This document shows, piece after piece, positions 2,755 to 49,150 of a stretch of DNA of 64,000 bases; positions within the stretch are counted from its first letter, which is position 1, and every line of letters begins with the position of its first letter. A model generated the notes under the pieces. The model was not told where the DNA came from. It searched no databases and saw only the letters and a program-made list of their open reading frames with translations. The translations under genes were made by a program, and so were the position numbers. Origin of the DNA: Patescibacteria group bacterium. Its GTDB lineage: Bacteria > Patescibacteriota > Minisyncoccia > Phycocordibacterales > SBAW01. Where the stretch lies: NCBI GenBank assembly GCA_016176685.1, contig JACOWS010000002.1:94608-158607 (forward strand), read 5' to 3'.

Positions 2755-3960
2755 ATGCGCATCTCTTTTTTTGCCGACAATTTTTACCCGGAACTCTCCG
2801 GGATCCCCGACTCTATCCTCATAACCGGCAAAGAGCTCGTGCAACGCGGTCATCAGGTGTGCTACGTGGCGCCGCACTATGGCGCGCGCGATTACGAAGT
2901 AGTCGCGCGCGCACTGCCCCAGAGGCCGGAGTACCTCGAGGGTATGCCGGTTTTCCGGCTTCCTTCGATACCGCTTCTGCGTTCGCCTACCGGACAATCG
3001 CGTATCGCGCTCCCTACCGGACGCTCCTTTTCTTTTTTGCACGCGTTCAAACCCGACATACTCCATACACACAGCCCTTACGGCGCAGGGCTCGAGGCCC
3101 TGCGTGCGGCGAAGATGTTACGCGTGCCGCTTGTAGGGACAAACCATACGCCGGTTGAAGAATTTTATCGTTTTGCACCAAACATCGCGCGGCGGCTGGA
3201 CGCATGGTATTACAACCATTGTGCCCTCATCACCACGCCCTATCAGGGACTCGTCTCCCGCATGCAAGAGAAGGGTTTTAAACGCCCAGGCCGGGCAATG
3301 CCCAACCCGTTGGAGTTGTCGCTTTTTTATCCTGCAAGAAACGAAGAAGAAAGGGAGCATTTGCGTGCAGAAATGGGGCTTTCTGGACCGGTTGTCATAT
3401 ACTCCGGCAGGCTCGCGAGTGAAAAGCGTGTTGATGTTTTGCTCCACGCGATCAAATTATTGGTCCCAAAGTTCCCTTCCCTCACGCTCCTTGTAACGGG
3501 GCTCGGGATTGAGGCCCATTCTCTGCATACGTTGGCGCAAGAGCTTGATATAGAGGGGCGCGTGCGCTTTACCGGGTTTGTACCGCAAGACGAGCTGGCG
3601 CGCTACTATCGCGCTGCGGACGTCTTTGCCATCATGTCTACAGCCGACAGCCAGTCACTCTCTCTTATGCAAGCATATGCAACCGGCATACCGGCCGTGT
3701 GCGCGGACAGCCGCGGACTCCATGACTACACGCCGAGCGACTGCGGATTTTTGGTAGAGCCGGGCAACCACCACACCTTGGCAGGAAAATTGAAACTTCT
3801 TTTAAACGACTCCGCCTTGCGCGAGCGCATGGGTAAGGCGGCGGCGACTTTCGTTAAAACATTCTCCCCCGAAAAAATCGTAACGGAGTGGGAGAAAATC
3901 TACCGCGACGCTATTGTCCGAAATCTTTCTTTAAAAACTGCGAGCGTACAGAGTGGGTAA
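2755..3960 (+). CDS. GT4 (group 1) glycosyltransferase
   Basis: 401 aa. GT-B C-terminal domain with an E..E-like motif region (YSGRLASEKRVDVLL...GIPAVCAD). Confidence 0.85.
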   Translation: MRISFFADNFYPELSGIPDSILITGKELVQRGHQVCYVAPHYGARDYEVVARALPQRPEYLEGMPVFRLPSIPLLRSPTGQSRIALPTGRSFSFLHAFKPDILHTHSPYGAGLEALRAAKMLRVPLVGTNHTPVEEFYRFAPNIARRLDAWYYNHCALITTPYQGLVSRMQEKGFKRPGRAMPNPLELSLFYPARNEEEREHLRAEMGLSGPVVIYSGRLASEKRVDVLLHAIKLLVPKFPSLTLLVTGLGIEAHSLHTLAQELDIEGRVRFTGFVPQDELARYYRAADVFAIMSTADSQSLSLMQAYATGIPAVCADSRGLHDYTPSDCGFLVEPGNHHTLAGKLKLLLNDSALRERMGKAAATFVKTFSPEKIVTEWEKIYRDAIVRNLSLKTASVQSG

Positions 3961-4510
3961 TAAGATAGTAGATGCCGAATACGACCGCGGTGGCGGCGAT
4001 CAATATTTCCACCCGCACAAGCGTGCTTTCGACGGTCGCAAAGTATCCGCCGAAAAAGTATCCAAGCCCTATCAAAACCGTGTATTGGAAGACGGCGAGG
4101 ATTGCGCTGTATCGCCAAAAAATCTTAAACGGCAAGTGTACCAATCCTGCGCTGATGAGAAGCGGGGTCGAGAGTCCGTACGCAAACTTGGTGATAGCCA
4201 TAGCTTTGAACGGATGTGAGTGCCAAAGACCCCGTACCATTTCGAAATGCTCGGGAGTTATGCGCAGTTTAGGGCCAACCCTTTCGATGAGCGATTTTTT
4301 CTTTCCCCACCGTCCGAAAAAATAATAACCAATGTCGGGAAGTACGTCGGCAAGCACCAGCGTCACAAAGAGCGGCAGTGGGTGGAAGTACCCGAGCGGC
4401 ACCAAGGACCCCGTGATGAAGCCGAGCATCGGGCCCTCGAGGCTCGCCAAGGGAAAGAGTATGAGGTAGCGGTATTGCTCGAGGAGCGCGATAATTGTGG
4501 CAAGTTCCAT
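3911..4510 (-). CDS. DedA/SNARE-associated family membrane protein
   Basis: 199 aa. LILFPLASLEGPMLGFITG motif typical of the DedA family. 4-5 TM helices. Confidence 0.75.
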   Translation of the reverse strand: MELATIIALLEQYRYLILFPLASLEGPMLGFITGSLVPLGYFHPLPLFVTLVLADVLPDIGYYFFGRWGKKKSLIERVGPKLRITPEHFEMVRGLWHSHPFKAMAITKFAYGLSTPLLISAGLVHLPFKIFWRYSAILAVFQYTVLIGLGYFFGGYFATVESTLVRVEILIAATAVVFGIYYLITHSVRSQFLKKDFGQ

Positions 4511-4569
4511 ATGCTCTAGTAGTATTAGTATATAACGGTATGCCCCCGCACAAGACCCTTGAGCAAGAA

Positions 4570-5235
4570 ATGACTATAGAGGTCTGGCACGTGCGCCTGT
4601 GGCGGCGCTATCAGGAAAGCTGGTTTGACAAGTCTTTTCGCTTCTCTGCGCCGTTCGCGCTTTTGTTTTTTACGTTGTCGATAGTTGCTAACTACTACGC
4701 GGGTATATACGCCACCAGCCGTGCGAGTAACTATGTGGAGGATATTGTGCTTTCTAACATTCCTGCTCTTGATGTAGATATTTTCTTTGTGTATGGAGCC
4801 GTACTGCTTGTCGCTGTTATTTTTTGGCTCTGCTTTGAAAACCCCAAGCGTATCCCTTTCTTACTTCACTCTCTCACGCTGTTCATATTTATACGTGCAG
4901 CATTTGTCTCCATGACCCACCTCGGCCCCTTTCCGACCGCAATACTCGTAGACGACGTACAGATTTTTTTCAGCAAATATTTTCTTTTCGGCGGAGATTT
5001 ATTTTTTTCTGGGCACACGGGGATCCCCTTTCTTATGGCTCTTATGTTCTGGCACCGCCCGATGCTGCGATACTTGTTTCTTGCGTGGTCGGTATTCTTC
5101 GGCGTTATTGTGCTACTGGGCCACCTGCACTACACAATAGATGTGGCTTCGGCGTTTTTTATCACCTACGGCATTTACCACTTGGCACTGTGGATATTCC
5201 CCCGCGAACGCGCGCTATTTTTGTCCGACCGATGA
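4570..5235 (+). CDS. PAP2_C / sphingomyelin-synthase-like membrane protein
   Basis: ORF 4495..5235. Contains GGDLFFSGHTG and HYTIDVASAFFITYGIYH, matching the SMS D3 (C-G-D-x3-S-G-H-T) and D4 (H-Y-T-x-D-V-x3-Y...Y-H) motifs. Start probably at MTIEVW (~4570). Confidence 0.65.
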   Translation: MTIEVWHVRLWRRYQESWFDKSFRFSAPFALLFFTLSIVANYYAGIYATSRASNYVEDIVLSNIPALDVDIFFVYGAVLLVAVIFWLCFENPKRIPFLLHSLTLFIFIRAAFVSMTHLGPFPTAILVDDVQIFFSKYFLFGGDLFFSGHTGIPFLMALMFWHRPMLRYLFLAWSVFFGVIVLLGHLHYTIDVASAFFITYGIYHLALWIFPRERALFLSDR

Positions 5236-5282
5236 GCAGTTTTCCACCTGCCGGGTATACTCTTTTCAACTTTTGCCGTGTA

Positions 5283-5546
5283 CTAACTGCCCCTCTTGTA
5301 TATATCGTCAAGTCGCACGATATCGTCTTCGCCAAGGTAGCTCCCTGTTTGTACCTCCACTAACTCTAGTTGGATTTTGCCGGGGTTGCCGAGGCGGTGT
5401 AGAGCCCCCATCGGTACATATATGGACTCGTTTTCGTGCAGCAGTCTTTTTTCTTCATTGACGGTTGCTTCTGCCACACCGCGCACCACCACCCAATGCT
5501 CGGAGCGGTGCAGGTGTTTTTGGAGTGAAAGTATCTCACCCGGCAA
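5283..5546 (-). CDS. manC: C-terminal cupin (type II phosphomannose isomerase) fragment of manC, frameshifted relative to upstream ORF
   Basis: [18 protein letters not shown]...[33 protein letters not shown] matches the ManC C-terminal cupin. The same frame continues upstream ([16 protein letters not shown]) to ~5585 with no ATG/GTG start, overlapping the 3' end of the upstream ORF. Confidence 0.6.
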
Positions 5547-5560
5547 AACGACGATGCGCT

Positions 5561-6667
5561 TTACATGGAAACGGTCACCGATGTCACGCGGCTGTGTTCG
5601 CGCGCCTCTTTGTGGCCGGCATCGTGGAGGGCACCGACGAGTTTTTTTACATCTTCGGCGCGGTCCCGCGACGCCACCATGACCGCGTCTTGCGTCGTTA
5701 TGACCACAAGGTCTTTTACGCCCAGCAGTGCGGTTACCCGCTCGGCATGCACCAGGGAGTTCTCCGTATCAAGTAGCACCGCGGCGCCGCGCACCGCATT
5801 GCCGAGCGGGTCCTTATCGACACTTTGATACATCCCCTCCCAGCTGCCGATGTCCGACCAGCGAAAACGGCCTTCCACCACCGCGGCTTTGGAAGTTCGC
5901 TCCATAACCGCGTAATCAACGGACTTCTGCGGGGCGCGCGCAAACGCCGCCGGCTCAAGGCGCGTGAATCCAAGGTCAGATTTTGCGTGCGTTACGGCCT
6001 GTTCCACTTCTTTAAACATCTGCGGCTCATAGCGCGCGACTTCTTGTAAAAATACATCCGCTCTAAAGAGAAAATTCCCAGAATTCCATAAAAACCCGCT
6101 TTCCAGGTAGTATTGCGCGGTTTCTCTGTCCGGTTTTTCTACAAATGTAGAGACAACAAAAACATCGGGGACATCCAGAACCTCGCCTTGGCGTATGTAT
6201 CCGTAGCTGGTCTTGGGCTCTGTGGGGCGGATGCCGAACAGCACGATGCTGCCGTCCTCTGCCGCCCGTCTCCCCGTGATACACGCTTTATGAAATAATT
6301 CCGTATCGGGAATAAGCTGATCCGCGGCTAGCACCAACACAAGCGCTTTTGGGTTTTGCCGCGCCGCCAAGAATGTTCCGGCGAGTATCGCGGGTCCGGA
6401 ATCCCGTCGCACGGGTTCGAGAACTATGGTGGGAGAGACACCCTCCTCCTGCGCCTGCTGCCGTACAAAAAAACGAAAGGATTCGGATGTCAACACTATC
6501 GGTGTGGAAAAAAGATTTGGGTCGCTTACCCTACTCAACGTCTGCTGAAAAGTGGATTTTTCCCCAAACAGGGGTAAAAACTGCTTCGGCATCGTGTCGC
6601 GGGATACAGGCCAGAGCCTGGTGCCGCTGCCGCCGGTCAGTAGTATCGGTATGATGGGCGTTTCCAT
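5561..6667 (-). CDS. manC: mannose-1-phosphate guanylyltransferase (GDP-mannose pyrophosphorylase), nucleotidyltransferase part
   Basis: 368 aa. [13 protein letters not shown]...PKQF N-terminal NTP-transferase motif. C-terminal end ...EAREHSRV aligns to ManC ...EATEHRKV just before the cupin, then the frame breaks. Confidence 0.85.
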
Positions 6668-6817
6668 TGCACCTTTTTGCCTCTAAGGAGGCCTATATAA
6701 TACGCGCGCAGTGTAGCAGAGGTCTCAAGAAAAGTCATGCATGCGACTTTGTACTAAGGCGGGTTTTATACCCAACCAAAAAAATATTTTTGCAGTATTC
6801 TGTATTACAATAGGTGT

Positions 6818-7171
6818 ATGGGTGAAATCTCACATCATCTTAAGGAGGTGCGTCCGTGGGGCTACTTCGAGCGCTTTACGCTTAACGAACCTTGCACGGT
6901 AAAAATAATCACCCTCGACCCCGACCAGGAACTTTCCCTGCAGCAACATGAACACCGCGACGAAGAGTGGCGCATACTGCATGGATCCGGCACCGTAAGC
7001 ATAAACGGTGTTGATACGGCCGTAGGACCTGGGGGCGAATTTAAGGTGCTGCGCGGAGAGCGTCACCGCGTTGCAAGCGGCTCTGACGGACTAGTATTCC
7101 TTGAGATATCGTTCGGACAGTTTGATGAAAAGGACATTACCCGACTAGAGGATAAATACGGGAGGAAATGA
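6818..7171 (+). CDS. standalone cupin, ManC-C-terminal/PMI type II-like
   Basis: 117 aa. RPWGYFE...LSLQQHEHRDEEWRILHGSG...LEISFG cupin-2 signature. Confidence 0.75.
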   Translation: MGEISHHLKEVRPWGYFERFTLNEPCTVKIITLDPDQELSLQQHEHRDEEWRILHGSGTVSINGVDTAVGPGGEFKVLRGERHRVASGSDGLVFLEISFGQFDEKDITRLEDKYGRK

Positions 7172-8337
7172 ACACGGGACATGCAATACTAGCCGCGGCC
7201 ACAGCGCTTTCCACCGAGGCGGCTGGTGTTTTACTTGCGTTGTGTTTACTTGTTGTCGGGTTTATAGTTTTGCTCCTGTTTTGGTTTTTTGAGACTCGGC
7301 GGCCGCTTGTACTTACCCGCACGGCAGAAAACCCCGTCCTTGGGCCAAACCCTTCTAGTTGGTGGGAGTCTGCCGCTGTTTTTAACCCCGCCGCGGTCGT
7401 ACATGACGGCCGCGTGCACCTGTTTTACCGCGCATTGGGGCAAGATGGCATATCGCGCATCGGACACGCCAGTAGCCTCGACGGCATCCATTTTGACGAG
7501 CGCTCACCCGACCCGGTGTATGACTGGGGAATGTTCAATGCCACACAGGCCAGAAACCTCGGCAGGCAACCATACCGACCACTTTCCTACCGCACAGACC
7601 TCTATGCCTCCGGCGGCGGCTGGGGCGGGTGCGAAGACCCGCGCGCGGTCAAGATAGGCGGGAAAGTCTATATGACCTTCGGTATTTTTGGCGGGTGGCA
7701 GTCTCTGCGTTTGGCAGTCACTTCACTTGCGCTTGGAGACTTTTCAAAACGAGCGTGGGCGTGGGCACGGCATATTACCATATCTCCGCAGAACGAAACG
7801 CACAAAAACTGGGTACTCTTTCCGGAAAAAATCGGCGGCCAATTTGCCATTTTACACGCACTTACCCCGCAGGTACTGGTCGACTATGTCGACTCGCTTG
7901 AGAACCTTGCCGACAATCCTATACGAAGCAATAACAATCGGGTCGGTTTTTCAAACGGCTGGGACTCATTTGTGCGCGGTGCCGCGGCCCCGCCAATAAA
8001 AACTCCCTATGGGTGGCTGCTCTTTTACCACGGGATGGACCCCGCGCGCGAGCCCCATATCGGCTACAAGGTGGGGGCGCTTCTGCTAGACCTCAACGAC
8101 CCGACCAAAATTTTATACCGCTCACAGGAACCCGTACTGACACCGGCACAGTGGTACGAGCATGACTGGAAGCCGAATGTAGTATACGCCTCCGGGGCGG
8201 TGGTATGGGGTGAGGATGTGGTGGTGTACTACGGCGGCGGCGACAAATACATTGCCGCCGCGAAAGCAAACTTGCGCGACTTTGTACGCAAACTAATGCA
8301 ACACGAGCATGCAGTACTTACTCCGGTGAAAAAATAA
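7168..8337 (+). CDS. GH130 family glycoside phosphorylase (beta-mannoside phosphorylase-like) with N-terminal TM anchor
   Basis: 389 aa. NPVLGPNPSSWWESAAVFNPAAVVHDGRVHLFYRALG...SRIGHASSLDGIHF is the canonical GH130 N-terminal signature. Hydrophobic helix at residues ~20-42. Confidence 0.85.
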   Translation: MNTGHAILAAATALSTEAAGVLLALCLLVVGFIVLLLFWFFETRRPLVLTRTAENPVLGPNPSSWWESAAVFNPAAVVHDGRVHLFYRALGQDGISRIGHASSLDGIHFDERSPDPVYDWGMFNATQARNLGRQPYRPLSYRTDLYASGGGWGGCEDPRAVKIGGKVYMTFGIFGGWQSLRLAVTSLALGDFSKRAWAWARHITISPQNETHKNWVLFPEKIGGQFAILHALTPQVLVDYVDSLENLADNPIRSNNNRVGFSNGWDSFVRGAAAPPIKTPYGWLLFYHGMDPAREPHIGYKVGALLLDLNDPTKILYRSQEPVLTPAQWYEHDWKPNVVYASGAVVWGEDVVVYYGGGDKYIAAAKANLRDFVRKLMQHEHAVLTPVKK

Positions 8338-8354
8338 ACGTATACTTATTCCAT

Positions 8355-10295
8355 ATGTACGTCATACGCAGAAGCTCGCACAACCCTATCATCGCCCCTC
8401 TGACCGACAAGTCGTGGGAGGCGCGCGGCACTTTTAACCCCTGCCCCACCAAAAAAGGCACCATAACGCATGTGCTCTACCGAGCCTTGGGCCTGCCCGA
8501 TGCTCTTATGACCCCTGCCGGCATTTCAACCATCGGCAAAGCGCTTTCGCTCGATGGCAAGCACTTTCAAAACAGACGGCAGTTTATCATCCCGGAAGAG
8601 CCGTGGGAAAAGTATGGCTGTGAGGACCCGCGGGTAACCTATTTTGAAGGAAAGTATTATATTTTTTATACTGCGCTTGGCGGCCAGCCCTTTGGCCCGG
8701 GCAATATCAAAGTAGCGTGCGCCGTATCAAAAGACCTGGAGACGGTAACCGAGCGACACTTGGTGACCCCATTTAACGCTAAAGCCATGGCACTCTTTCC
8801 CGAGCGCATTGGCGGCCCTGGCCGGGCAGGCAAAATAACGGTCATTGTGACCACCCACACCGACGAGCCGCCGGCCAAAATAGCCATTGCGCAGTGCGAC
8901 CGCATTGAAGAGCTGTGGGACCTCTCCTTTTGGGAGAAGTGGCACAGCGAGCTCGACGAGCACACTATAAATCCTCTGCGTTTCGATCACGACCATGTCG
9001 AGGTTGGCTCCCCGCCTATCAAAACAAAAGAGGGGTGGCTCTTATTTTACTCCTACATTCAAAACTACTTTGGCGGGGGTGAGCGGGTGTTTGGTATTGA
9101 AGCGATGCTCTTAAATCTGACCGACCCGCACCAGATTGTCGGTAAAACCAATGGGCCCATTATGGTGCCCGAAGATATGTATGAAAAGTACGGCATAGTG
9201 CCTAACGTCGTTTTTCCTTCCGGAGCATTGCTGCAAAAAAACGACCGGGTGGACATTTACTACGGCGGCGCCGACACGGTGTGTGCGCGCGCCTCACTCA
9301 ACCTACCAGACCTTATAGCCGCGCTTATTCCGCAAAAGCGGGTGGAGCTTGCGGTGCGCGCTAAAGAAAACCCCATCATAGAACCAAATCCCGAGCACCC
9401 GTGGGAAAAGAATGCGACTTTTAATGCGGGCGCTATAGACCTCGGCGGTTCGGTGCACTTGCTGTACCGCGCGATGGGCGACGACAACACCTCGGTCTTG
9501 GGGTATGCGTCAAGCAAAAATGGCATTACATTTAGCGAGCGCTCCAAGAGGCCGGCGTACATCCCGCGTGAAGAGTTTGAAAAGAAGCACGGATCGCCCA
9601 CCGGAAACTCCGGCTGTGAGGACCCGCGCATTACAAAAATAGGCGGCACTCTCTATATGACCTACACCGCCTTCGACGGCGTACACCCCACCCGCGTGGC
9701 GCTTACCACCATTACAGCCAGAGACTTTCTCGCCAAACGTTGGGATAAATGGAGTAAACCAATTTTAACCACGCCGGAGAATGTCAACGACAAAGACATG
9801 TGCCTCCTGCCCGAGAAAGTGCGCGGGCAGTATATGCTCTTCCACCGCATTGACCCGATGATCTGCGCCGATTTTTTGAACACGCTCGACTTTAGCAAAA
9901 GCAAGCTCACCCGCTGTATCGAGATCATGGGCCCCAGGCCGGGCATGTGGGACTCTCAAAAGATAGGCATTGCCGGGCCGCCTATAAAAACTAAAAAGGG
10001 GTGGCTCCTCATTTACCACGGCGTTTCCAAAACAAACACCTACCGGCTCGGTGCGGTACTTTTGGACCTTAAAAACCCGTCTATTGTGCTTTCCCGCAGT
10101 GTCGACACCATTTTTGAGCCGCTGGAAGAGTACGAGCGCGTGGGGTTGGTGCGCAATGCGGTGTTTTCCTGCGGGCAAGTGGTGCGCGGTGACACGCTCT
10201 ATATTTACTACGGCGGGGCCGACACGGTGCTGGGGGTTGCAAAAGTGTCGCTCAAAAAACTCCTCAAAATTTTACTGCCGGACAATTTGGCATAA
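8355..10295 (+). CDS. tandem double GH130 glycoside phosphorylase
   Basis: 646 aa with two complete GH130 repeats. NPIIAPL...GTFNPC...LYRALG at the start and NPIIEPNPEHPWEKNATFNAGAIDLGGSVHLLYRAMG from residue ~330. Confidence 0.85.
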   Translation: MYVIRRSSHNPIIAPLTDKSWEARGTFNPCPTKKGTITHVLYRALGLPDALMTPAGISTIGKALSLDGKHFQNRRQFIIPEEPWEKYGCEDPRVTYFEGKYYIFYTALGGQPFGPGNIKVACAVSKDLETVTERHLVTPFNAKAMALFPERIGGPGRAGKITVIVTTHTDEPPAKIAIAQCDRIEELWDLSFWEKWHSELDEHTINPLRFDHDHVEVGSPPIKTKEGWLLFYSYIQNYFGGGERVFGIEAMLLNLTDPHQIVGKTNGPIMVPEDMYEKYGIVPNVVFPSGALLQKNDRVDIYYGGADTVCARASLNLPDLIAALIPQKRVELAVRAKENPIIEPNPEHPWEKNATFNAGAIDLGGSVHLLYRAMGDDNTSVLGYASSKNGITFSERSKRPAYIPREEFEKKHGSPTGNSGCEDPRITKIGGTLYMTYTAFDGVHPTRVALTTITARDFLAKRWDKWSKPILTTPENVNDKDMCLLPEKVRGQYMLFHRIDPMICADFLNTLDFSKSKLTRCIEIMGPRPGMWDSQKIGIAGPPIKTKKGWLLIYHGVSKTNTYRLGAVLLDLKNPSIVLSRSVDTIFEPLEEYERVGLVRNAVFSCGQVVRGDTLYIYYGGADTVLGVAKVSLKKLLKILLPDNLA

Positions 10296-10298
10296 GGT

Positions 10299-11066
10299 AT
10301 GCAGGCCCGCCCAAAACTAGTGGTGTTCGACCTTGATGGCACGTTGGTTGAAAGCAAACAGCCGATGTCGGCACAGATGGGCGAATTGGTTGGAGAGCTC
10401 CTGCAAATGATGCCGGTGGCGGTTATGTCCGGCGCGGCCTTCCATCAGTTTGAACGGCAATTTTTGCCGGCGCTCCCCGAGCAAGCGCGGTTTGAGCGGC
10501 TATACCTCTTTCCCACTAACGCGGCGGTATGCTACATACACAAAGACGGTGGGTGGCAAACCGCTTATGACCACTCGCTTACCATTATAGAAAAGAGTCG
10601 TATCTTGCAAGCGCTTAAAGAAGCCCGCGCGGAAACCGGCCTTGCCGTGGTACCGGAGTACAACCCAAAGTGGGGCGAACAGGAGGAGGACCGCGGCACA
10701 CAAATCACCTTCTCGGCTCTTGGCCAACGCGCCCCGGTGGGAGAAAAGAAAAGGTGGGATCCGACGAAGGAAAAGCGTTTGCCTTTGTATAAAGCGCTTG
10801 TGCGGCGGCTGCCAGATTTTTCCGTAGGGCTCAACGCGACAACCTCGATAGACATCACACGCAAAGGAATAAGCAAAGCGTACGGGGTGCGGCGCCTTAT
10901 AGAGATGACCGACATTTCCGTTTCCGAAATGCTCTATATCGGCGACGCCCTCAAAGAGGGCGGCAACGACGCCGTGGTTAAAGAGACGGGTATCCGCACC
11001 CAGGAGGTCTTTGGCCCGGAGGAGGCGGCTATTATTATACAAGACCTGCTCAACCGCGCACACTAG
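10299..11066 (+). CDS. HAD-superfamily phosphomannomutase of the eukaryotic PMM type
   Basis: 255 aa. FDLDGTL, FPTNAAVCYIHKDGGW, SIDITRKGISKAYG, YIGDALKEGGNDAVV align with PMM1/2 motifs (FDVDGTL, FPENGLVAYKDGK, SFDVFPxGWDKxY, FFGDKTMPGGNDHEI). Confidence 0.7.
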   Translation: MQARPKLVVFDLDGTLVESKQPMSAQMGELVGELLQMMPVAVMSGAAFHQFERQFLPALPEQARFERLYLFPTNAAVCYIHKDGGWQTAYDHSLTIIEKSRILQALKEARAETGLAVVPEYNPKWGEQEEDRGTQITFSALGQRAPVGEKKRWDPTKEKRLPLYKALVRRLPDFSVGLNATTSIDITRKGISKAYGVRRLIEMTDISVSEMLYIGDALKEGGNDAVVKETGIRTQEVFGPEEAAIIIQDLLNRAH

Positions 11067-11087
11067 TTTGTCGAGCGGTTTTTGGGT

Positions 11088-11540
11088 TTAGCGACTACCA
11101 AAGAAGGAAAAGAAGTTTGAAAACCAGTGCGAGACATTGCCGGGGAGACTGTAAGTAAAAAAGTAAAAATCTTGCCACACCCCCGCCCGTGCACTGACAC
11201 CGGCGCCGCTGGAGGTTGCTACAAATACCTGCACCGACTTGTCGCTGGGGGAAATAGTTTTTATTACTGACTCCTTGTGTACTACCCCCCCTGCCTCTGT
11301 TTGTACCTCGACTTCTACCACGCCGCTACCCGCGTTTGTGTTGAGCGTATTTTTTATTTCTACCGAGGCGCTCCCCGACTCGGAGTAGGCACTGCCGCTG
11401 CCGCCGACCTGTATACCGCCGGTTGAAACTTCCGAAGAGCTGTAGGTGGTCAACGCCAACCCGCCGCCCCCCGCAAAAGCAAGCGCAAAGAGCGGGTGAA
11501 GGGACAGAAGTATGCTTATGCCGGTAACGAAGTATTTCAT
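11088..11540 (-). CDS. small secreted Gly/Ser-rich protein
   Basis: ORF 11088..11570. Signal peptide MKYFVTGISILLSLHPLFALAFA. Shares a V..NT.NTNAG-like repeat flavour with the neighbouring giant protein. 13-nt gap to the next gene. Confidence 0.5.
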   Translation of the reverse strand: MKYFVTGISILLSLHPLFALAFAGGGGLALTTYSSSEVSTGGIQVGGSGSAYSESGSASVEIKNTLNTNAGSGVVEVEVQTEAGGVVHKESVIKTISPSDKSVQVFVATSSGAGVSARAGVWQDFYFFTYSLPGNVSHWFSNFFSFFGSR

Positions 11541-11583
11541 GGTGAGTACAGTACCAAGCACTTGGTACAAAAGGAAGACGGCT

Positions 11584-14500
11584 CTAGAGACCGCCGAGTA
11601 GGCCCTTGAGCACAGAGAACCACCCTGCCTTTTTGGGCGCAGGCGCTTGCTCTACGTCCGGGGCCAATGGCGCCAAAAAGGCGCCCGATGGCGGAACACT
11701 TTTAGGCGTTTTTGGTTCTGACTTTGGTGCGCTCGGCGCCGCGCTATGTACCGCAGCCGCAGCGGCAACCTGCGGCGCCGGTGCGCCAACCACTATAGGC
11801 GCCTTGCCGCCGCAGGCGAGCTGGTTTATTTTGCTCTGCGTCATTGAGTACACTCCTCCGGTGGGGGTCTTGAGCCCTAGCGGGGTCAGAACCTCGGCGG
11901 CATACTTTTGCTGAAATGCATTGACTGCCGCCGCGGTTAATGGCCCGTAGTAGCCGGTGGTCGGCAGGTGTGCATTTTGATGTGCGTTGAGAAAGGCCTG
12001 CAGATTGACCACCTCGGCACGGTTGTTTTTCCTACTACGGGACATAAAGCTGGTAAGGAGCGGCTTGCAATCTACTTCATCATCATCGGCAATCGCAACT
12101 GTGGAAGTACCGAGTACCTCTCCCGCTTCTGTAAACTCTACCTCGCTTGACGCCTCAACCGGCGTAAAGGGGTTGCCGACAACCGGGTGGTTGCGCATAC
12201 CGGTAACGCGGGCGACATTGCGATATATGCCCGGCTTGGTGCTGGTGCCAAACGCTATTGAGTACGAGAGGGTAATGAGGTCGGCCGGTGCCACGGTCTC
12301 GAGGTCCCACGAGCGCGCGTACATAACGCCGCCCGAGGGGTCGTAGAGCGTGTCGGTGAGCAAGCCGTGGTACAGAGCGCCCGCGCTGGTATTGTTTTCA
12401 ATAACTACCTGGTAGTCGACCATCGTGGGGGCGGTGGTTGTGCCTATACTTAGGGTCTTTTTAACCGTGATTTTTGGGTCTGGCGTTGCGCTGTATGTAC
12501 CGTTTGCGGTTATGCCGGCAATGAGTCCGCCACCACCGCCACCGCCTCCACCACCTCCTCCTCCGCCCCCACCGCCATTATTGACGACGGGTGCCGGCGA
12601 AGTGACATCTACTGTAACCACGGTAAATCCCGCCGTGTCTCCGCCTTCAACTGTAGCAGTCAGAGGGATAGTCATTGATGTGCCCGCCGGTGTATCGCCC
12701 ACCTCTGCCGTATAGGTAAACGTGCGCGTCTCGCCCCGAGCCACCCTGCCCAAGTTCCACTTCTTGCCGTTGTCGGTATCCGTTGCTCCGCTATCGGCGG
12801 CAAAGGTAAGCAAATTTTTGTCAAAGTCGGCCTTTAGCGCCACATCCTCCGCGTCGGCATCGCCGCTGTTTGTAACGGTAAAGCGGTACTCCACCGTGGA
12901 GCCCGGCAAGACCGCCCTGGTGGCGTTGGTAAAGGCCTCGAGAGAAAGGTCGGATTGTCCAAAAGCGATATCGCCGCTCCAGTCGCCAAAGATGTTAAAG
13001 ACGGCAAATATCCAGTTGCGCCCGACTATGTTGGTGTTGATGAGGTTTATAACATTGGCTACCGCGTAGGCATTGCCGGTATTGATATATCCGGTACCGT
13101 CTTCTGTCAGAGTTTCGTTTGCGCCAGTTTCTGCAGAGACGTCCACATTGTTTTCAACCACGGCAACATTGGTAGATGATGCTAGGAAGTGCGAGGAGTT
13201 GTAGCAGTTGGAGACGGGTCCCAACTTTTCTTTACAATTAGCATCAGGAGCTTCAGGCAACTCTACCCCGCTGTTGTCACTGGTGACCAAAATAACTGTT
13301 GAGGTGCTGTTTCCCTCGGAGTTCTCCGGAAGTGCCACCCACGAGAGCCCCGCGGGCAGGCCGGTAACATTGCCGCTCCACTCGCCCGAAACGCGGAAGA
13401 AGAAGAATGCCGAGGTACCGCCAAAGTAGCTCCCGTTGGCGTCGGTAAAGGTAGTGGCCGAGCTGTAGGCGTCGCCTGTTTCAACTTCGCCATGACCAAG
13501 ACCCGTGGTGGTAGCCACATTCTCGCCTGTCTCGGCACTTGCGGTAGTGGTACCGACAAAGTTTACATCGTTGGTGTTATTAACCCCGTAGGTGCTCGCG
13601 TTCATCGCCGGGGCAGAGCCGCCGTGGGCAAAAAGCTTCCCGAAGAAGTCGGCATTGGGCAGGGTGATGTTGCCCGCCAAGCTGCCAAAGTTGTTAAACG
13701 AGACAAGCAGGTAGCTTGAGTTGATGATGTTGGTGTTGACCACGTTAAGCACGTTGGCCGCGGCATAGGCGTCGCCGGTGTTTATAGAAGCACCGCCGCT
13801 CTCGGTTGAGGAAGCCACATTCTCCCCCGTTGAAGCGCGCACCAGGACGCTGTTGGTTACGGTGGCGGTGTTGTCGTTTACCACGTTAAGCTCGCTGGCA
13901 TTGAGGCAGGTTAAGAGGGTGCACTGCGGCTCGCCGGTTGTCTCGTTGACCGTTTGGGACGCGCCCGCCTCGCCGTCAAAGAAATAGGAGAGGTTGAAGT
14001 CGCGCAGGTCAAACCCGCCGCCGAAAAGCTGATTCAAAAAGAGGATGAGCCCGTAGGAGTTGAAGATGTTGGTGTTGACGAGGTTTATGACATTGGATGT
14101 TGCGGCGGCGTTGCCGGTATCAATGGTCGAGGTGGCTACCCCTCCATCGGCCATGTTCTCGCCCGTTGTCGCCAAGGTCTCGGACTCGCTCCCCAGCTCG
14201 GCCTCGTTTGTGGTAGAGGCGGTAAGGTTGGAGGAATTCATTTCCTCTCCCGGCGCGTCGCACAGCTCATCCGAGTCTTCCGAGCAGGTGTCTGCAACAT
14301 TTATAATGTTGGTGTTAAGCTCGTTGTCGACGGTTGTCGAAGCGGTGGCATCACCGGTGACTATCTCGCCGCCCACAAGACCGCCCGTGCCGTCGGTGGA
14401 GGTGGCTATGGTGGTGTTTAATTCGTCCGGCAGTATTTCATCGGTACTGGTGGCTGTGGTTGTAGGAGTGGAGGTAGCCACTGGAGCCGGCTCATCCGCG

Positions 14501-14724
14501 GGAGGTGGCGGCAGTTCGCAGGAATCACCGTTCCAGGAGCCGCCGTCTGTAGTGCACTGCACATCGGCGCATGGCTCGGCATCTTGCTCGCCCGGCACAT
14601 TTGCGCACACGTCAACCGGAGGTGGAGCTTCTTCAGCCCGTACGACGATAGACCCGGCCCCGGCCGCAAAGATGAGAAAAAGGCCCGTCCATAGAAAGTA
14701 GCGCGATGCAGAGGATATGGTCAT
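11584..14724 (-). CDS. giant secreted surface protein: repeat modules + DUF11/CARDB-like domain + Gly18 linker + C-terminal peptidoglycan-binding (PG_binding_1-like) domain
   Basis: 1046 aa. Signal peptide. At least five copies of module TGEN.A....G.A.I.TGDAYA.ANV(I/L)N.VNTNI..S. Domain TVEYRFTVTNSGDADAEDVALKADF. Run of 18 Gly. C-terminus AEVVNLQAFLNAHQ...TGYYGPLTAAAVNAFQQKY typical of the PG-binding domain. Confidence 0.85.
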   Translation of the reverse strand: MTISSASRYFLWTGLFLIFAAGAGSIVVRAEEAPPPVDVCANVPGEQDAEPCADVQCTTDGGSWNGDSCELPPPPADEPAPVATSTPTTTATSTDEILPDELNTTIATSTDGTGGLVGGEIVTGDATASTTVDNELNTNIINVADTCSEDSDELCDAPGEEMNSSNLTASTTNEAELGSESETLATTGENMADGGVATSTIDTGNAAATSNVINLVNTNIFNSYGLILFLNQLFGGGFDLRDFNLSYFFDGEAGASQTVNETTGEPQCTLLTCLNASELNVVNDNTATVTNSVLVRASTGENVASSTESGGASINTGDAYAAANVLNVVNTNIINSSYLLVSFNNFGSLAGNITLPNADFFGKLFAHGGSAPAMNASTYGVNNTNDVNFVGTTTASAETGENVATTTGLGHGEVETGDAYSSATTFTDANGSYFGGTSAFFFFRVSGEWSGNVTGLPAGLSWVALPENSEGNSTSTVILVTSDNSGVELPEAPDANCKEKLGPVSNCYNSSHFLASSTNVAVVENNVDVSAETGANETLTEDGTGYINTGNAYAVANVINLINTNIVGRNWIFAVFNIFGDWSGDIAFGQSDLSLEAFTNATRAVLPGSTVEYRFTVTNSGDADAEDVALKADFDKNLLTFAADSGATDTDNGKKWNLGRVARGETRTFTYTAEVGDTPAGTSMTIPLTATVEGGDTAGFTVVTVDVTSPAPVVNNGGGGGGGGGGGGGGGGGLIAGITANGTYSATPDPKITVKKTLSIGTTTAPTMVDYQVVIENNTSAGALYHGLLTDTLYDPSGGVMYARSWDLETVAPADLITLSYSIAFGTSTKPGIYRNVARVTGMRNHPVVGNPFTPVEASSEVEFTEAGEVLGTSTVAIADDDEVDCKPLLTSFMSRSRKNNRAEVVNLQAFLNAHQNAHLPTTGYYGPLTAAAVNAFQQKYAAEVLTPLGLKTPTGGVYSMTQSKINQLACGGKAPIVVGAPAPQVAAAAAVHSAAPSAPKSEPKTPKSVPPSGAFLAPLAPDVEQAPAPKKAGWFSVLKGLLGGL

Positions 14725-14862: not shown

Positions 14863-16974
14863 TTACAACTCGCAACTTGTCAGCACATTGAAGCCTCCGC
14901 CAGCATTGCAGGTGTCGGTGCCTCCCTGGCCGTTTATCTTGTCGTTGCCGCCCTGCGCCATGATGGAGTCGTCTCCGCCACCCGCATCGACCTTATTGTT
15001 GCCGTCGCCGGCGTCTATGGTGTCGGCACCGGAGCCAGTCGTAATTTTGTCGTTTCCTGCACCTGTGGTAACGGTATAGCCGCCATCGCCCGCAATGATA
15101 GTGTTGTTACCGAACATAGAGAAGAGTGTGCCGCCGCCGTTGCCGACAGTAACTTTGTCGTTGCCGGCACCGGCATCTACCACTGCATCGCCGTCGCCGA
15201 GGTCTACCTTATCGTTGCCGCTACCAAGGCAGACGATAAAGTTGCCGTCGCCGCCCGTAACCTTGTCGTTGCCGCCAAGGCCGACAAACATGGTCATGGA
15301 TGCGAGCACTACTTTGTCGTGTCCGGCAGTGCCGTTTTGGAGCGTGTAGCCAGCCGGTGCCACGCCCGGAGTCTCGCACGCCTCTGCCAAAGACGGCGGC
15401 GCGGGAGGTGTATTGTCCACCGTAACCTTCCAGGCATCACTCCACGGGCTCATGTTGCCGTCGTTATCAACCGCGCGCACGTGCCAATAGTAGACTCCCT
15501 CGGGCGTGCCGGGGGTCGGGATTTCAGACACAGCCAGTGGGCCGGAAGTGTATACCGGGGTCGTAAACGAGCCGTCCGGGTTTGTCGCGGAAGAGTTGGA
15601 CGATTGATAGCGATAGGTCATCGGCAATGCCGGGTCGGTGACATCTGTCCAGTCGATTTTGTCCAGCGCGGCCGATGTTAGCGTGCTGTTGTCTGCCGGA
15701 GAAAGGTGCACCGGCGCGGGGACGCATATCTTGTTCCACACAATAACGTACTTGTCGCCGGTGATGCCGGTGAAGCTCGGGACAGTGAGTGACACGGGCG
15801 CACCTGCCGCCTCAACAGGCGTGTCGCCGGTGCTGTAGCCAACTAACGCATATGGCTGGCCGGTACTGCAGTCGGCGCCAACTACCGCGCCGCCTGTTAC
15901 CTCGTAGGTACTGTAGTCGGCACCCGAGGTCATCTCGGAGGTGATTGCCTGGTAGGGAGTGGGGTCGCCGTTAAAGCCGTCGGCATCGAGGTCGTACGAG
16001 CCGCTTCCTGCGCCGATGTTTGCGGCATCCCAGGTTGCCGACATAGGGAATGCGGATGAGTCCGCACTCACTGCCGTTGCCTGTGCCCCGTCAATAAACT
16101 TGTTGATGGTGACGGTCACTGGAGGCATAGGGCCAGAAAGGAGCGAGAGGTTGTCGAATAGGAAGCCGTTACCCGCCGTATCCGGAGCCGCCCCGCCGCC
16201 AGTGCGGAAGATGAGGTCGTCGGTCGTGCGCGGACTCTGTTCCGCGGATGCTTCGGAGTCAAAGCGGAAGTAGTTTTCCCAAGTGGTTCCCGTATGTACC
16301 AACACGCCGTCTATGTAGATTTTGACAATGTCGTTGGAAGCACTATCAACATAGTCAATTACGAACTTTGCCGAATGCGTTGTCGAGCGAGAAAGGCCTG
16401 TTGCAACCGTTGTCGGCGAGAAAGTTGCCGGGTTACCTGTGCCTGGCGTGTCATAGAAGATAACGTCAATACCGCCCGGCTCGTCGGAGAATCCTAGATA
16501 GCTCATACGCGAGCCGTCGCCGCGGTCTGGAGATACAGATACAAAGAGTCCCGGCTGTTGGGTTGATTCTGTAGAGGCAAAGTCAAACTGTGCCTCAAAG
16601 TGCGGCTGCCTGGTGCCGCCGGACATACCGCCGCTGGTAGAATCAACCTCGCCCGCTTCGTCTATTAGAGATTTAGAAAAGGTCATGTCGCCAAAACAAC
16701 CGCTCGTGACTGCGTTGGAGATGCGCAATACCTTCGAGCCGAATTCTACGAAACCGTAGGAGTTTGATACAACCGCGTGGTCATATATTGCACAGCCGGA
16801 TCCTACACTGCCGAGGCTAGACCACCCGTCTTGTCCGTTGACCGTTCCAAGCGTAAAGCTCTCGAAGTCGGTGGCGGTGCTGTCGGCAGATGCGTAAGAG
16901 AACAAGGCAAGGGCGCCGAGCAGTATCGCTACTGTTGTGAGAGTTCCTGCGCCGATTGATACTGTTTTACTCAT
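14863..16974 (-). CDS. secreted surface protein: ConA/LamG-like N-domain, Ig/Fn3-like middle, C-terminal RTX-type Ca-binding GG.G.D repeats
   Basis: ORF 14863..17112. Probable start at MSKTVSIGAGTLTTVAILLGALALFSYASA (signal peptide). C-terminal run GGNDKVTGGDGN...GAGNDKVTVGNGG...GAGNDKITTGSGADTIDAGDGNNKVDAGGGDD. Confidence 0.8.
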   Translation of the reverse strand: MSKTVSIGAGTLTTVAILLGALALFSYASADSTATDFESFTLGTVNGQDGWSSLGSVGSGCAIYDHAVVSNSYGFVEFGSKVLRISNAVTSGCFGDMTFSKSLIDEAGEVDSTSGGMSGGTRQPHFEAQFDFASTESTQQPGLFVSVSPDRGDGSRMSYLGFSDEPGGIDVIFYDTPGTGNPATFSPTTVATGLSRSTTHSAKFVIDYVDSASNDIVKIYIDGVLVHTGTTWENYFRFDSEASAEQSPRTTDDLIFRTGGGAAPDTAGNGFLFDNLSLLSGPMPPVTVTINKFIDGAQATAVSADSSAFPMSATWDAANIGAGSGSYDLDADGFNGDPTPYQAITSEMTSGADYSTYEVTGGAVVGADCSTGQPYALVGYSTGDTPVEAAGAPVSLTVPSFTGITGDKYVIVWNKICVPAPVHLSPADNSTLTSAALDKIDWTDVTDPALPMTYRYQSSNSSATNPDGSFTTPVYTSGPLAVSEIPTPGTPEGVYYWHVRAVDNDGNMSPWSDAWKVTVDNTPPAPPSLAEACETPGVAPAGYTLQNGTAGHDKVVLASMTMFVGLGGNDKVTGGDGNFIVCLGSGNDKVDLGDGDAVVDAGAGNDKVTVGNGGGTLFSMFGNNTIIAGDGGYTVTTGAGNDKITTGSGADTIDAGDGNNKVDAGGGDDSIMAQGGNDKINGQGGTDTCNAGGGFNVLTSCEL

Positions 16975-17005
16975 AATTGGTTTTACTAAATTAATAACTT
17001 GTTTG

Positions 17006-17437
17006 TTAGCGGGTGCGCGCGGCGTCCCTGGTTGAACAGCTGGATGTAGAGAGTCTGTCGCACTGCGTCTCCGGCTCCGGCGCCGGCTCATCGCCCCCAT
17101 CATCGCCGCCATAGCTGGTGTCTGGGGTGTTGGTTGGCCCTATGTTGACCACATACACCTCCACGTGCTCGTCGCCGGTGATGACCGTGCCGCCCTCGTT
17201 GCCGCCGGAGTCGGCGGTGCCGCTCGTTGAGTTTGAAATGTTGCCTGCACTTGGATTAATCGGAGCCGGAGTAGGAGTGCTCGGGGGAGCGTCGGTGGAG
17301 GGGCTCCCCGACCCGCCGCGGTCGCGTACCGAAGCGTCCCTGACCTCTGCCTGCGCGCTAAAGGCAAGCACATACATCGCAAGAATGGCGAGCGCCACCG
17401 CGACTACTTTTGTGGTGACCGAAAGTGTTTTAGTCAT
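17006..17437 (-). CDS. small secreted Pro/Gly/Ser-rich protein
   Basis: 143 aa. Signal peptide with AQA|EV cleavage-like site. Low complexity. Confidence 0.5.
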   Translation of the reverse strand: MTKTLSVTTKVVAVALAILAMYVLAFSAQAEVRDASVRDRGGSGSPSTDAPPSTPTPAPINPSAGNISNSTSGTADSGGNEGGTVITGDEHVEVYVVNIGPTNTPDTSYGGDDGGDEPAPEPETQCDRLSTSSCSTRDAARTR

Positions 17438-31824: not shown

Positions 31825-38703
<6,879 letters not shown>

Positions 38704-49132: not shown

Positions 49133-49150
49133 TAGTAGTAGTATAGAGGT

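Follow-up and report, generated by a model that had tools for sequence, protein, structure and literature searches.

Phosphorylases of glycoside hydrolase family 130 (GH130) that act on beta-1,2-mannosides have been described from Thermoanaerobacter sp. X-514, where the cluster Teth514_1785-1796 encodes a 1,2-beta-oligomannan phosphorylase (Teth514_1788) and a beta-1,2-mannobiose phosphorylase (Teth514_1789, subfamily GH130_6) (PMC4264767). In this report, a four-gene operon that encodes three GH130 modules together with a phosphomannose isomerase (PMI)-like cupin and a HAD-type mutase is described from a bacterium of the Patescibacteria group. The analysis covered a 64,000-nt stretch of contig JACOWS010000002.1 (the window), and all coordinates are window positions. 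The four-gene operon is real and is conserved across many ultra-small Paceibacteria. Its putative role is the cytoplasmic interconversion of beta-1,2-mannosides and hexose phosphates.

A second system of interest is the beta-1,2-mannan cycle of Leishmania, in which phosphorylases and strict glycosyltransferase (GT) primers with an altered residue at the phosphate-pocket Arg are built on one fold (PMC10913872). The mannogen cycle of the GT108 enzymes MTP1-7 is attributed to Sernee et al. 2019, as cited in PMC10913872. The characterised GH130 beta-1,2 phosphorylases all have weak transferase activity with GDP-mannose (GDP-Man) (PMC12814180). Tandem GH130-GH130 proteins have been noted in CAZy and are uncharacterised (PMC7660257). 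A literature search on GH130 and mannoside phosphorylases in the Candidate Phyla Radiation (CPR), Patescibacteria and Parcubacteria turned up GH130 once, in passing, in a paper on a Microgenomates genome, and did not turn up the operon.

The window locus is like the Thermoanaerobacter cluster in that several GH130 genes stand together with a mannose-1-phosphate (Man-1-P) guanylyltransferase and a GT4 nearby, and in its ATP-sparing logic. All three modules have their best sequence and structure match in the Thermoanaerobacter enzymes (~40% identity, TM-score 0.86-0.89) and share the Glu/Lys (E/K) signature of beta-1,2 specificity. Unlike the Thermoanaerobacter cluster, the window locus has no ABC transporter and no GH5 gene, two of its three modules lack an intact phosphate site, two modules are fused, and one enzyme is tethered by a membrane helix or a polybasic tail. 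Its operon also includes the PMI-like cupin and the HAD-type mutase, and its manC is accessory and broken. Each component comes from a known family, the ATP-sparing logic is known, and a similar salvage was proposed for Thermoanaerobacter; the system is thus not categorically new. What is new is the conserved operon architecture in Paceibacteria, the way in which the phosphate site is lost and remodelled to different degrees in three co-encoded modules, the alternative tethers and the implied endogenous substrate.

Layout and conservation of the operon

Four tightly packed genes on the plus strand, found in the open reading frame (ORF) listing and by direct reading, lie divergent to manC. The features are as follows.

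5283-6667, minus strand: manC-like region, two ORFs in different frames
6668-6817, no strand: divergent intergenic region between manC and the cupin gene, 150 bp
6818-7171, plus strand: stand-alone type II PMI-like cupin, 117 aa, operon gene 1 (PF01050)
7168-8337, plus strand: N-terminally anchored single-module GH130, 389 aa (PF04041)
7225-7290, plus strand: predicted transmembrane (TM) helix of the anchored GH130, residues ~20-41 (hydropathy)
8355-10295, plus strand: tandem GH130-GH130 protein, 646 aa (PF04041, two stretches)
8355-9338, plus strand: N-terminal GH130 module of the tandem protein, aa 1-328, with predicted sugar subsites kept and phosphate site lost or acidified
9339-10295, plus strand: C-terminal GH130 module of the tandem protein, aa 329-646, predicted canonical beta-1,2-mannoside phosphorylase module
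10299-11066, plus strand: predicted HAD-IIB (C2B cap) alpha-phosphohexomutase of the PgmH/phosphomannomutase (PMM) clade, 255 aa (match to 4bnd)

The cupin and anchored GH130 genes share 4 nt (ATGA), GGGAGG lies shortly before this overlap, and gaps of 17 nt and 3 nt separate the anchored GH130 gene from the tandem gene and the tandem gene from the HAD gene. An earlier reading of this DNA that was made from the sequence only had proposed five gene products here and operon-like packing on the plus strand. All five products are present and the packing is as described, with the correction that manC is not a single intact gene. An Rfam scan of positions 4000-12000 (E <= 0.1) found no RNA element, and the counts from a promoter and terminator scan were not above those of shuffled sequence. 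A -10-like hexamer, TACAAT, lies at 6809-6814, a few nucleotides before the cupin ATG at 6818, and no Shine-Dalgarno sequence is visible there; the hexamer was not reported by the consensus scan. The transcript of the cupin operon may be leaderless.

Relatives of the tandem protein number in the thousands. The best 120 clusters are 76-95% identical to it, and the sources named among these clusters are Paceibacterota, Adlerbacteria, Kaiserbacteria, Parcubacteria and Minisyncoccia. Scanning the species genomes of GTDB gave at least 581 confirmed stretches, of which the best 80 encode full-length tandem proteins that are 53-82% identical and come from Patescibacteria metagenome-assembled genomes. 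The carriers span lineages from soil, groundwater and lakes.

Gene order was compared in 80 independent loci (cited below by L numbers) using tblastn and ORF clustering. In 74 of the 76 loci with enough flank, the gene immediately 5' of the tandem gene, in the same orientation, encodes the tethered single-module GH130. A cupin gene precedes the GH130 genes in 62 of 71 loci. The PMM-type HAD gene is found 3' of the tandem gene in 23 of the 24 loci in the group with at least 65% identity, and in the more distant, Nomurabacteria-like group the HAD gene precedes the cupin gene in 21/47 loci. Taken over all groups, the HAD gene is an adjacent gene in most of the loci. ManC-like genes adjoin the operon in 4/80 loci only. 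Since these flank counts favour cupin, tethered GH130, tandem GH130 and HAD genes, the conserved unit consists of these four and manC is an accessory neighbour. The order of the core four genes is kept across class-level Patescibacteria (Paceibacteria) lineages.

Some loci have a gene inserted between the tethered and tandem GH130 genes. Two kinds, coding for proteins of ~197 aa and ~340 aa, occur among L013 (8388-8981), L035 (4856-5452), L046, L047, L059, L019 (7508-8512) and L076 (7956-8996); in the protein of ~340 aa a 'GLEDPD' motif recalls the GH130 catalytic motif. The inserted genes had no Pfam or PDB match.

Family, predicted linkage and phosphate site of the GH130 modules

The three modules are bona fide members of GH130, as the sequence-only reading had called them, and not of an unrelated propeller family. 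PF04041 matched the anchored enzyme with 123.2 bits and the tandem protein with 310.4 bits over two stretches (cutoff 26), and the closest solved relatives of all three modules are Teth514_1788 (9fj8) and Teth514_1789 (7fip). In a PDB sequence search 9fj8 was matched by the C-terminal module with an E-value of 4e-61, by the tethered enzyme with 5e-46 and by the N-terminal module with 5e-39, and the C-terminal module matched 7fip with 1e-60. The AlphaFold (AF2) model of the tandem protein (pLDDT 86, pTM 0.72) has two complete propellers in one chain, and the top Foldseek hits of this model were all GH130, with Teth514_1789 and Teth514_1788 as the best at the TM-scores given above. The anchored enzyme scored 208.2 bits against NF052550, the NCBIfam equivalog for beta-1,2-mannobiose phosphorylase (cutoff 450). 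Membership in GT108 was also considered and was rejected, as the Foldseek matches are at the level of the fold only (E 1e-10 to 1e-9, 13-17% identity); PDB sequence searches with all three modules returned no MTP (GT108) chain.

Residues were scored in alignments of 71 orthologues of the anchored enzyme and 80 orthologues of each tandem module, using the criteria for GH130 mechanism and linkage of PMC7660257 (Li et al. 2020) and PMC4599007 and the numbering of Uhgb_MP. The catalytic proton-donor Asp (D104 equivalent) is invariant in all three (D157 in the anchored enzyme, 71/71; D91 in the N-terminal module, 80/80; D423 in the C-terminal module, 80/80). A Glu/Lys pair at the +1 subsite (Y103 and R150 equivalents) is a marker of beta-1,2 specificity (PMC7660257), and this pair is present in 100% of the orthologues of each module as E156/K213 (anchored), E90/K143 (N-terminal) and E422/K480 (C-terminal). 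The Arg of the +1 subsite (R88 in the anchored enzyme, R43 in the N-terminal module) and the D304 equivalent (D359, D307 and D623 in the anchored, N-terminal and C-terminal modules) are likewise kept in 100% of the orthologues of all three. The linkage is predicted to be specifically beta-1,2, rather than beta-1,4 or the generic beta-mannoside linkage of the earlier reading.

The modules differ at the phosphate site, where the residues are as follows.

R168 equivalent: C-terminal module, R498; tethered enzyme, A231 (S/N/A/G in 71/71); N-terminal module, Thr
Basic residue of the 'ARVG' strand: C-terminal module, K536; tethered enzyme, shifted by one position (R270); N-terminal module, His
H231 equivalent: C-terminal module, H555; tethered enzyme, H288; N-terminal module, S233
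Y242 equivalent: C-terminal module, Y563; tethered enzyme, Y300; N-terminal module, F246
Arg after the Y242-equivalent Tyr: C-terminal module, R564; tethered enzyme, K301; N-terminal module, G247

Judged from these alignments, the R/H/Y phosphate-binding set is complete in only one of the three modules, the C-terminal one. Its full set (D423, E422/K480, R498, K536, H555, Y563/R564 and D623) is conserved in 78-80 of the 80 orthologues, with R498, H555 and Y563 in all 80. Phosphorolysis by all three GH130 domains, as read earlier, would hold for the C-terminal module, which keeps the phosphate ligands, and is not predicted for the anchored and N-terminal modules, which do not keep the full set. 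In the tethered enzyme a conserved insertion of ~20 aa ('SGGGWGG') lies just before the catalytic motif, at the position of the lid of GH130_4. The GH130_4 lid limits chain length.

The N-terminal module has Thr, S233 and F246 at the R168, H231 and Y242 equivalents in 80/80 orthologues; the Thr is T169 or T166, on which HMMER and MAFFT disagree, and neither is basic. Three acidic residues have appeared in this module: E216 (80/80) replaces a Gly two positions past the His of the 'ARVG' strand, E249 (79/80) replaces a Gly two positions past G247, and D170 (80/80) lies in an insert ('TD.PP') that only this module has. In the AF2 model the HVEV and VFGIEAMLL segments form beta-strands, and strand periodicity would therefore put E216 and E249 on the strand face of the lost basic residues. 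The mean pairwise identity of the N-terminal module is 0.63 and that of the C-terminal module 0.625; since the N-terminal module is as conserved as its partner, it is considered to be functional, and remodelled rather than decayed. The possibility that it is a decaying pseudo-domain was ruled out by this equal conservation and by the gain of near-invariant residues.

Comparison with other beta-1,2-active enzymes helps to place these changes. Uhgb_MS (PMC12814180) belongs to the same family and has the same linkage signature, and it is an example of how GH130 beta-1,2 enzymes can take GDP-Man besides Man-1-P. However, Uhgb_MS has K184, R202 and R242, whereas the tethered enzyme and the N-terminal module have no R202 equivalent and their R242 equivalent is absent or shifted; the GH130_4 lid loop is also absent, the tethered enzyme having its own insertion in that place. 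The N-terminal module is like the GH130_3 beta-1,2-mannosidases BT3780 and BACOVA_03624 (PMC4599007) in that the basic phosphate ligands are lost and the beta-1,2 Lys is kept. Its carboxylates (E216, E249 and D170) may also lie near the anomeric pocket, and E216 and E249 are at most candidate counterparts of Glu227 and Glu268, the catalytic-base pair of BT3780. Unlike the GH130_3 enzymes, the module has no signal peptide, and it matches 9fj8 with 5e-39 vs ~1e-14 to 1e-16 for the hydrolases; the score against NF058598 was 189 bits (cutoff 550). The N-terminal module thus derives from GH130_6-type phosphorylases, and its residue changes recall the base-to-carboxylate switch of the GH130 beta-1,2-mannosidases.

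The set of three also resembles the Leishmania system, which has several paralogous five-bladed propellers working on beta-1,2-mannan, some as phosphorylases and some as primers with an altered pocket. In contrast to Leishmania, Ser/Asn/Ala/Gly or Thr stands in place of the Arg, and not His, and mannan has not been demonstrated in CPR bacteria.

Predicted tethering of the single-module GH130

The sequence-only reading had described the single-module enzyme as TM-anchored, which applies to the window and part of its relatives. The TM helix of the window protein has a mean Kyte-Doolittle hydropathy of 3.2, with no Lys or Arg before it and three within the 15 aa after it. Across the TM-type orthologues (the window and 27 others) there is almost no Lys/Arg before the helix and there are 3-5 such residues just after it, a bias seen in 27/28. 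By the positive-inside rule this bias indicates an N-out/C-in topology, and the catalytic domain is therefore predicted to be cytoplasmic. The anchor is lineage-specific: in 44 other orthologues the helix is replaced by a tail of ~65 aa that is 42% Lys/Arg. Either of the two, helix or polybasic tail, could hold the enzyme at the inner membrane face or on a polyanion, and neither is a secretion signal. No signal peptide was found in any GH130 module, and no N-terminal hydrophobic segment in the tandem protein, the cupin or the HAD protein.

The predicted HAD-type mutase and the stand-alone cupin

The HAD protein is predicted to be a phosphomannomutase. As a single sequence it matched the alpha-phosphoglucomutase PgmH of Lactococcus lactis (4bnd) with 2e-38 over a full-length alignment, followed by human PMM2, and a family profile built from 20 HAD orthologues gave 2e-54 for 4bnd and 7e-18 to 6.5e-9 for 15 PMM sequences, vs ~1e-4 at best, with partial coverage, for Cof-type phosphatases. 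The HAD-type PMM of the earlier reading therefore groups with PgmH and the eukaryotic PMMs rather than with Cof phosphatases, and it isn't atypical, as had been thought, PgmH being an already known bacterial type. The protein shares with PgmH and the eukaryotic PMM1/PMM2 (PF03332) the HAD-IIB fold with a C2B cap, the DxDxT motif (D11-x-D13-x-T15), the PMM-type GDx4GGND motif (GD216-x4-GGND) and the cap motif R-x6-S-x-x-G-Q. G215-D216 and G221 of the GDx4GGND motif are invariant among the orthologues and the GND part is nearly so. Most of the orthologues have precomputed PF03332 hits, and many were named 'phosphomannomutase' by the Joint Genome Institute (JGI). HAD-type PMMs commonly act on both mannose and glucose phosphates (PMC8808168).

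In four relatives (L035, L052, L053 and L059) a classical four-domain phosphoglucomutase (PGM)/PMM phosphohexomutase occupies the operon slot of the HAD gene. This is a non-orthologous displacement and the strongest contextual evidence for a mutase role. The chain Man-1-P to mannose-6-phosphate (Man-6-P) to fructose-6-phosphate (Fru-6-P) is plausible given the family placement of the GH130 and HAD proteins, and it is reinforced by this displacement.

The stand-alone cupin matched PF01050 with 61 bits (cutoff 23.6). It has nearly all motifs of the C-terminal (type II PMI) domain of the intact ManC from L002, among them RPWGxF, SLQxHxxRxE, H83 and, at the C-terminus, GxFxxExDIxRxxDxYGR, and its ManC-like motifs are kept in 66 orthologues. 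A PDB sequence search with the cupin returned generic cupins only (E >= 0.002).

Links between the operon and sugar-1-phosphate activation recur through different genes. ManC is divergent to the operon in the window and in L002, a GMP-only ManC (mannose-1-phosphate guanylyltransferase, GMP, type) takes the slot of the cupin in L077 and L081, and in 27 of the 80 loci, from Nomurabacteria-like lineages (e.g. L034, L038, L041 and L042), the operon opens with a 164-aa gene of the cytidylyltransferase fold, ahead of HAD-cupin-GH130-GH130. The best model for this gene is RfaE domain II (heptose-1-phosphate adenylyltransferase), at 71.5 bits, far under the equivalog cutoff of 181.5. It is from these three arrangements that a recurrent link is drawn.

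The manC region and the neighbouring genes

The features of the manC region are as follows.

5561-6667, minus strand: manC 5' part, 368 aa, NTP_transferase domain and ManC beta-helix, premature stop at 5561-5563
5283-5546, minus strand: orphaned manC 3' part, 87 aa, C-terminus of the type II PMI cupin domain, out of frame
5585..5586, minus strand: junction of a 31-bp deletion, from alignment against L002

Bifunctional ManC/CpsB/AlgA proteins (TIGR01479) join a guanylyltransferase to a C-terminal PMI domain, and the 5' ORF covers profile positions 1-359 of 467 with 420 bits, along with PF00483 (146 bits) and PF22640 (57 bits). The 3' ORF matched TIGR01479 at positions 383-467 and PF01050 with 122 bits (positions 37-116 of 116); like this orphan fragment, the stand-alone cupin corresponds to the C-terminal PMI domain. 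The window differs from the bifunctional type in that the gene is split by the deletion and in that the PMI-like domain also exists as a separate conserved gene of 117 aa. The window manC is therefore not one polypeptide of GMP, beta-helix and PMI cupin; in frame there are only GMP and beta-helix.

The reference for the deletion is L002, a JGI contig with an intact ManC of 471 aa, the tandem GH130 of which is 95% identical to that of the window. In a DNA alignment against L002 exactly 31 bp are absent from the window manC (GTACCGCCCGTGGGGCTACTTCGAGTCCATG), so that the conserved 'YRPWGYFESM' is lost, the frame is shifted and the stop arises at 5561-5563. The independent Logan assembly L001 (run SRR12113430; equal to window positions 5557-12073) has the same junction and stop codon, and it ends 28 nt past the junction, at window position 5557. 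Such an end point is expected of a k=31 de Bruijn graph where a deleted and an intact allele re-merge. It thus points to a real deletion allele in a mixed population, with both forms of manC apparently present in SRR12113430. When metagenome contigs were scanned for exact matches to the junction there were 0 hits, and there is therefore no independent confirmation from JGI. The truncated ManC has the architecture of the natural GMP-only ManC of L077 (373 aa) and may therefore still make GDP-mannose. It is likely that the split leaves the GMP half as the sole product, and the orphaned 3' part is probably untranslated. The earlier description of manC was thus correct for the presence of a divergent guanylyltransferase gene, which is frameshifted and falls outside the conserved unit.

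The following genes for membrane proteins and glycosyltransferases were found in the window.

475-1230: GT2, near the operon
2755-3960, plus strand: GT4 (Pfam/NCBIfam), resembling monoglucosyl-diacylglycerol synthase
3911-4510, minus strand: DedA/VTT protein, DedA/UptA-like (Pfam/NCBIfam)
4495-5235, plus strand: PAP2_C membrane protein (Pfam/NCBIfam)
22584-23816: chitin-synthase-like GT2

The upstream GT2 had no specific NCBIfam assignment. The order GT4/DedA/PAP2_C is the same in L002, L005, L013, L018 and L025, and upstream GT4, DedA, PAP2_C and a GT2 recur in ~6-7/80 loci only; BacA is present in L003. The many glycosyltransferases that had been noted nearby come to these two GT2 and one GT4 genes, and the remaining genes of the window are housekeeping genes. 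The GT4 and DedA genes are convergent with a 50-nt overlap at 3911-3960, as they are in L002 and L005. No transporter was found in the operon, its conserved neighbours or the window neighbourhood. Neither the operon nor the window encodes an ABC transporter, a solute-binding protein or a secreted endo-glycanase.

Proposed pathway and alternative explanations

We propose that the operon, the products of which are all predicted to be cytoplasmic, forms a cytoplasmic shuttle. Gene content and order, conservation, residue patterns and family placement are observed, and the enzymatic activities, the direction of flux and the endogenous origin of the substrate are inferred from them. The C-terminal module of the tandem protein would carry out the reversible reaction of beta-1,2-(Man)n and Pi to beta-1,2-(Man)n-1 and alpha-Man-1-P, the HAD-type mutase would interconvert Man-1-P and Man-6-P, and the PMI-like cupin would interconvert Man-6-P and Fru-6-P. 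Hexose phosphate could thereby pass from Fru-6-P to beta-1,2-mannoside and back without cost of ATP or GTP in either direction. The anchored and N-terminal modules would still bind beta-1,2-mannoside, having kept the catalytic Asp, the Arg, the Glu/Lys pair and the second Asp. Because the phosphate site is partly lost in the tethered enzyme and fully lost in the N-terminal module, neither looks like an ordinary phosphorylase. The tethered enzyme would most likely be a membrane- or polyanion-tethered enzyme that forms or transfers primers, and the N-terminal module most likely a hydrolase-like or chain-holding partner, so that the two would supply chemistry that needs no free phosphate (priming, transfer or hydrolysis). 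The substrate would be an endogenous, mannogen-like buffer of beta-1,2-oligomannan, which may also feed Man-1-P to a sugar-1-phosphate nucleotidyltransferase, here ManC. The proposed likeness of the window operon is to the mannogen of Leishmania, which serves in the cytosol as a reserve or buffer and has links to GDP-Man and Man-1-P. An endogenous pool is favoured over scavenging because there are no uptake genes and the conservation in these minimal genomes is at the level of housekeeping genes. We give about an even chance (roughly 0.5) to a Paceibacteria-wide cytoplasmic operon for beta-1,2-mannoside and mannose phosphate that works on an endogenous mannogen-like pool.

Several results weigh against this proposal. 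The tandem protein scored 448.3 bits against NF052550, a marginal miss of the cutoff of 450 with a sum over two modules. The HAD protein of the window scored 18.4 bits against the Pfam PMM model, under the gathering cutoff of 22.4, which also sets it apart from PgmH and the eukaryotic PMMs; its closest characterised relative is a phosphoglucomutase, so glucose-1-phosphate is a possible substrate. Ten loci (L036, L048, L051, L055-L057, L075, L076, L078 and L085) have a Cof-type, phosphatase-like HAD-IIB protein in the mutase slot, which the pathway does not explain, and the HAD gene or the cupin is non-adjacent in some loci. The stand-alone PF01050 cupins are without a close relative that has been solved or characterised. 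A literature search found no report of beta-1,2-mannan from any CPR bacterium, and transporters could be encoded elsewhere in the genome. A bolder form of the proposal is that Paceibacteria make and cycle an intracellular beta-1,2-mannan ('mannogen') as a buffer of carbohydrate and phosphate by nucleotide-independent phosphorylase chemistry, with the Arg-less tethered GH130 as primer synthase and the acidified N-terminal module as a new, independently evolved hydrolase or regulatory partner; we offer this form tentatively and regard it as doubtful.

The main alternative in the direction of flux is catabolic salvage, in which exogenous beta-1,2-mannosides (e.g. from host or fungal glycans) would be imported and converted to Man-1-P, and from there to GDP-mannose by ManC or into glycolysis by the PMM and PMI. 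The cluster of Teth514_1788/1789 with a Man-1-P guanylyltransferase and GT4 was read as GDP-mannose salvage (PMC4264767), manC and a GT4 gene are neighbours in the window, and a hydrolase-like N-terminal module together with a short-chain-restricted tethered enzyme would suit stepwise degradation. However, uptake genes and a secreted endo-glycanase are missing from the operon and the window, unlike in the Thermoanaerobacter cluster; manC is adjacent in few loci and is frameshifted here; and beta-1,2-mannans are environmentally rare, yet the tandem protein is conserved like a housekeeping protein, with 55-82% identity, across soil, groundwater and lake lineages. We consider salvage to be unlikely. 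The route from beta-mannoside to glycolysis or GDP-mannose that the sequence-only reading had drawn fares accordingly: its chain of hexose phosphates remains plausible, and its outer ends lack import genes on one side and an intact manC on the other.

The two modules with a deficient phosphate site leave room for two further explanations. In envelope glycoconjugate biosynthesis, the tethered GH130, possibly with the tandem protein, would move beta-1,2-mannose from Man-1-P or NDP-mannose made by the operon onto a membrane-bound acceptor made by GT4/GT2 (a glycolipid or lipoglycan primer) that is later exported. The TM helix or polybasic tail could bind membranes, genes for GT2, GT4, a DedA/UptA-like protein and PAP2_C precede the operon both in the window and in several relatives, with BacA in L003, a nucleotidyltransferase gene opens the operon in 27/80 loci, and GH130 beta-1,2 enzymes can work as glycosyltransferases (PMC12814180). 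Against this, the envelope genes are adjacent in a small minority of loci, the +1-subsite mannose residues of the tethered enzyme (R, E/K) are fully conserved, which argues for a mannoside rather than a lipid acceptor, and the basic residues implicated in binding the diphosphate of GDP-Man (R202 and R242 equivalents of Uhgb_MS) are missing or shifted in it; a one-way biosynthesis would also need no canonical phosphorylase module. This explanation is quite unlikely in our view. The formation of polyprenyl-phosphate-mannose by the anchored enzyme was also set aside, given the full conservation of the same +1-subsite residues. It is less probable still, and we consider it very unlikely, that the deficient modules are non-catalytic, with the N-terminal module covalently joined as a pseudo-dimer partner or else serving to bind mannan, the tethered enzyme as a scaffold and the C-terminal phosphorylase as the sole active enzyme. 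GH130 phosphorylases are dimers with a site shaped by loops of both subunits, the AF2 model has both propellers complete in one chain, and the N-terminal module is without any phosphate ligand. But both deficient modules have an invariant catalytic Asp and invariant residues throughout the sugar subsites, the N-terminal module is conserved as highly as the active one, and the gain of near-invariant E216, E249 and D170 on the strand faces of the former basic residues argues for remodelling and not decay.

CPR/Patescibacteria have tiny genomes and few conserved operons with an understood function, and here is one with an order that is conserved at class level and a tandem enzyme that is conserved like a housekeeping protein. 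If the operon does make a reversible, ATP-free link between hexose phosphates and beta-1,2-mannosides, it would show how energy-poor episymbionts buffer carbon and phosphate, and it would be a bacterial counterpart of the Leishmania mannogen cycle. If the pool is mannogen-like, CPR bacteria would have their first described storage-glycan system, and it would be a living example of the bacterial enzyme type that is thought to be ancestral to the trypanosomatid mannogen enzymes. The three modules form a series in which the phosphate site is complete, partly lost and fully remodelled, and they offer a test set for the differences between phosphorylases, transferases and hydrolases in GH130.

Other features of the window

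Downstream of the operon there are two large ORFs on the minus strand, at 11584-14724 and 14863-17112. The 1046-aa protein has a hydrophobic N-terminal segment and is probably secreted; it contains DUF11 and peptidoglycan-binding domains and a run of ~17 glycines, and its relatives recur 3' of the operon in several loci. The 749-aa protein has RTX repeats. Two paralogous proteins of ~195 aa with a PaaX central/Cas2-like domain are encoded at 1305-1886 and 39728-40318, both on the minus strand; one of the two is encoded a short way 5' of the GT4/DedA genes, and the copy at 1305-1886 is also conserved in L002.

Three further ORFs were noted among the housekeeping genes. The RNase HII ORF at 48557-49741 (minus strand) starts with TTG, has its domain in residues 209-393 only and overlaps the start of dnaE (49151-52333, plus strand) by ~590 nt; it is probably over-extended at the 5' end. 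A 306-aa ORF at 46892-47812 (minus strand) joins an N-terminal NusB domain to a C-terminal NUDIX hydrolase domain. A single ORF of 2292 aa at 31825-38703 (minus strand) contains all RNA polymerase beta (Rpb2) domains followed by all beta' (Rpb1) domains, and it looks like an rpoB-rpoC fusion.

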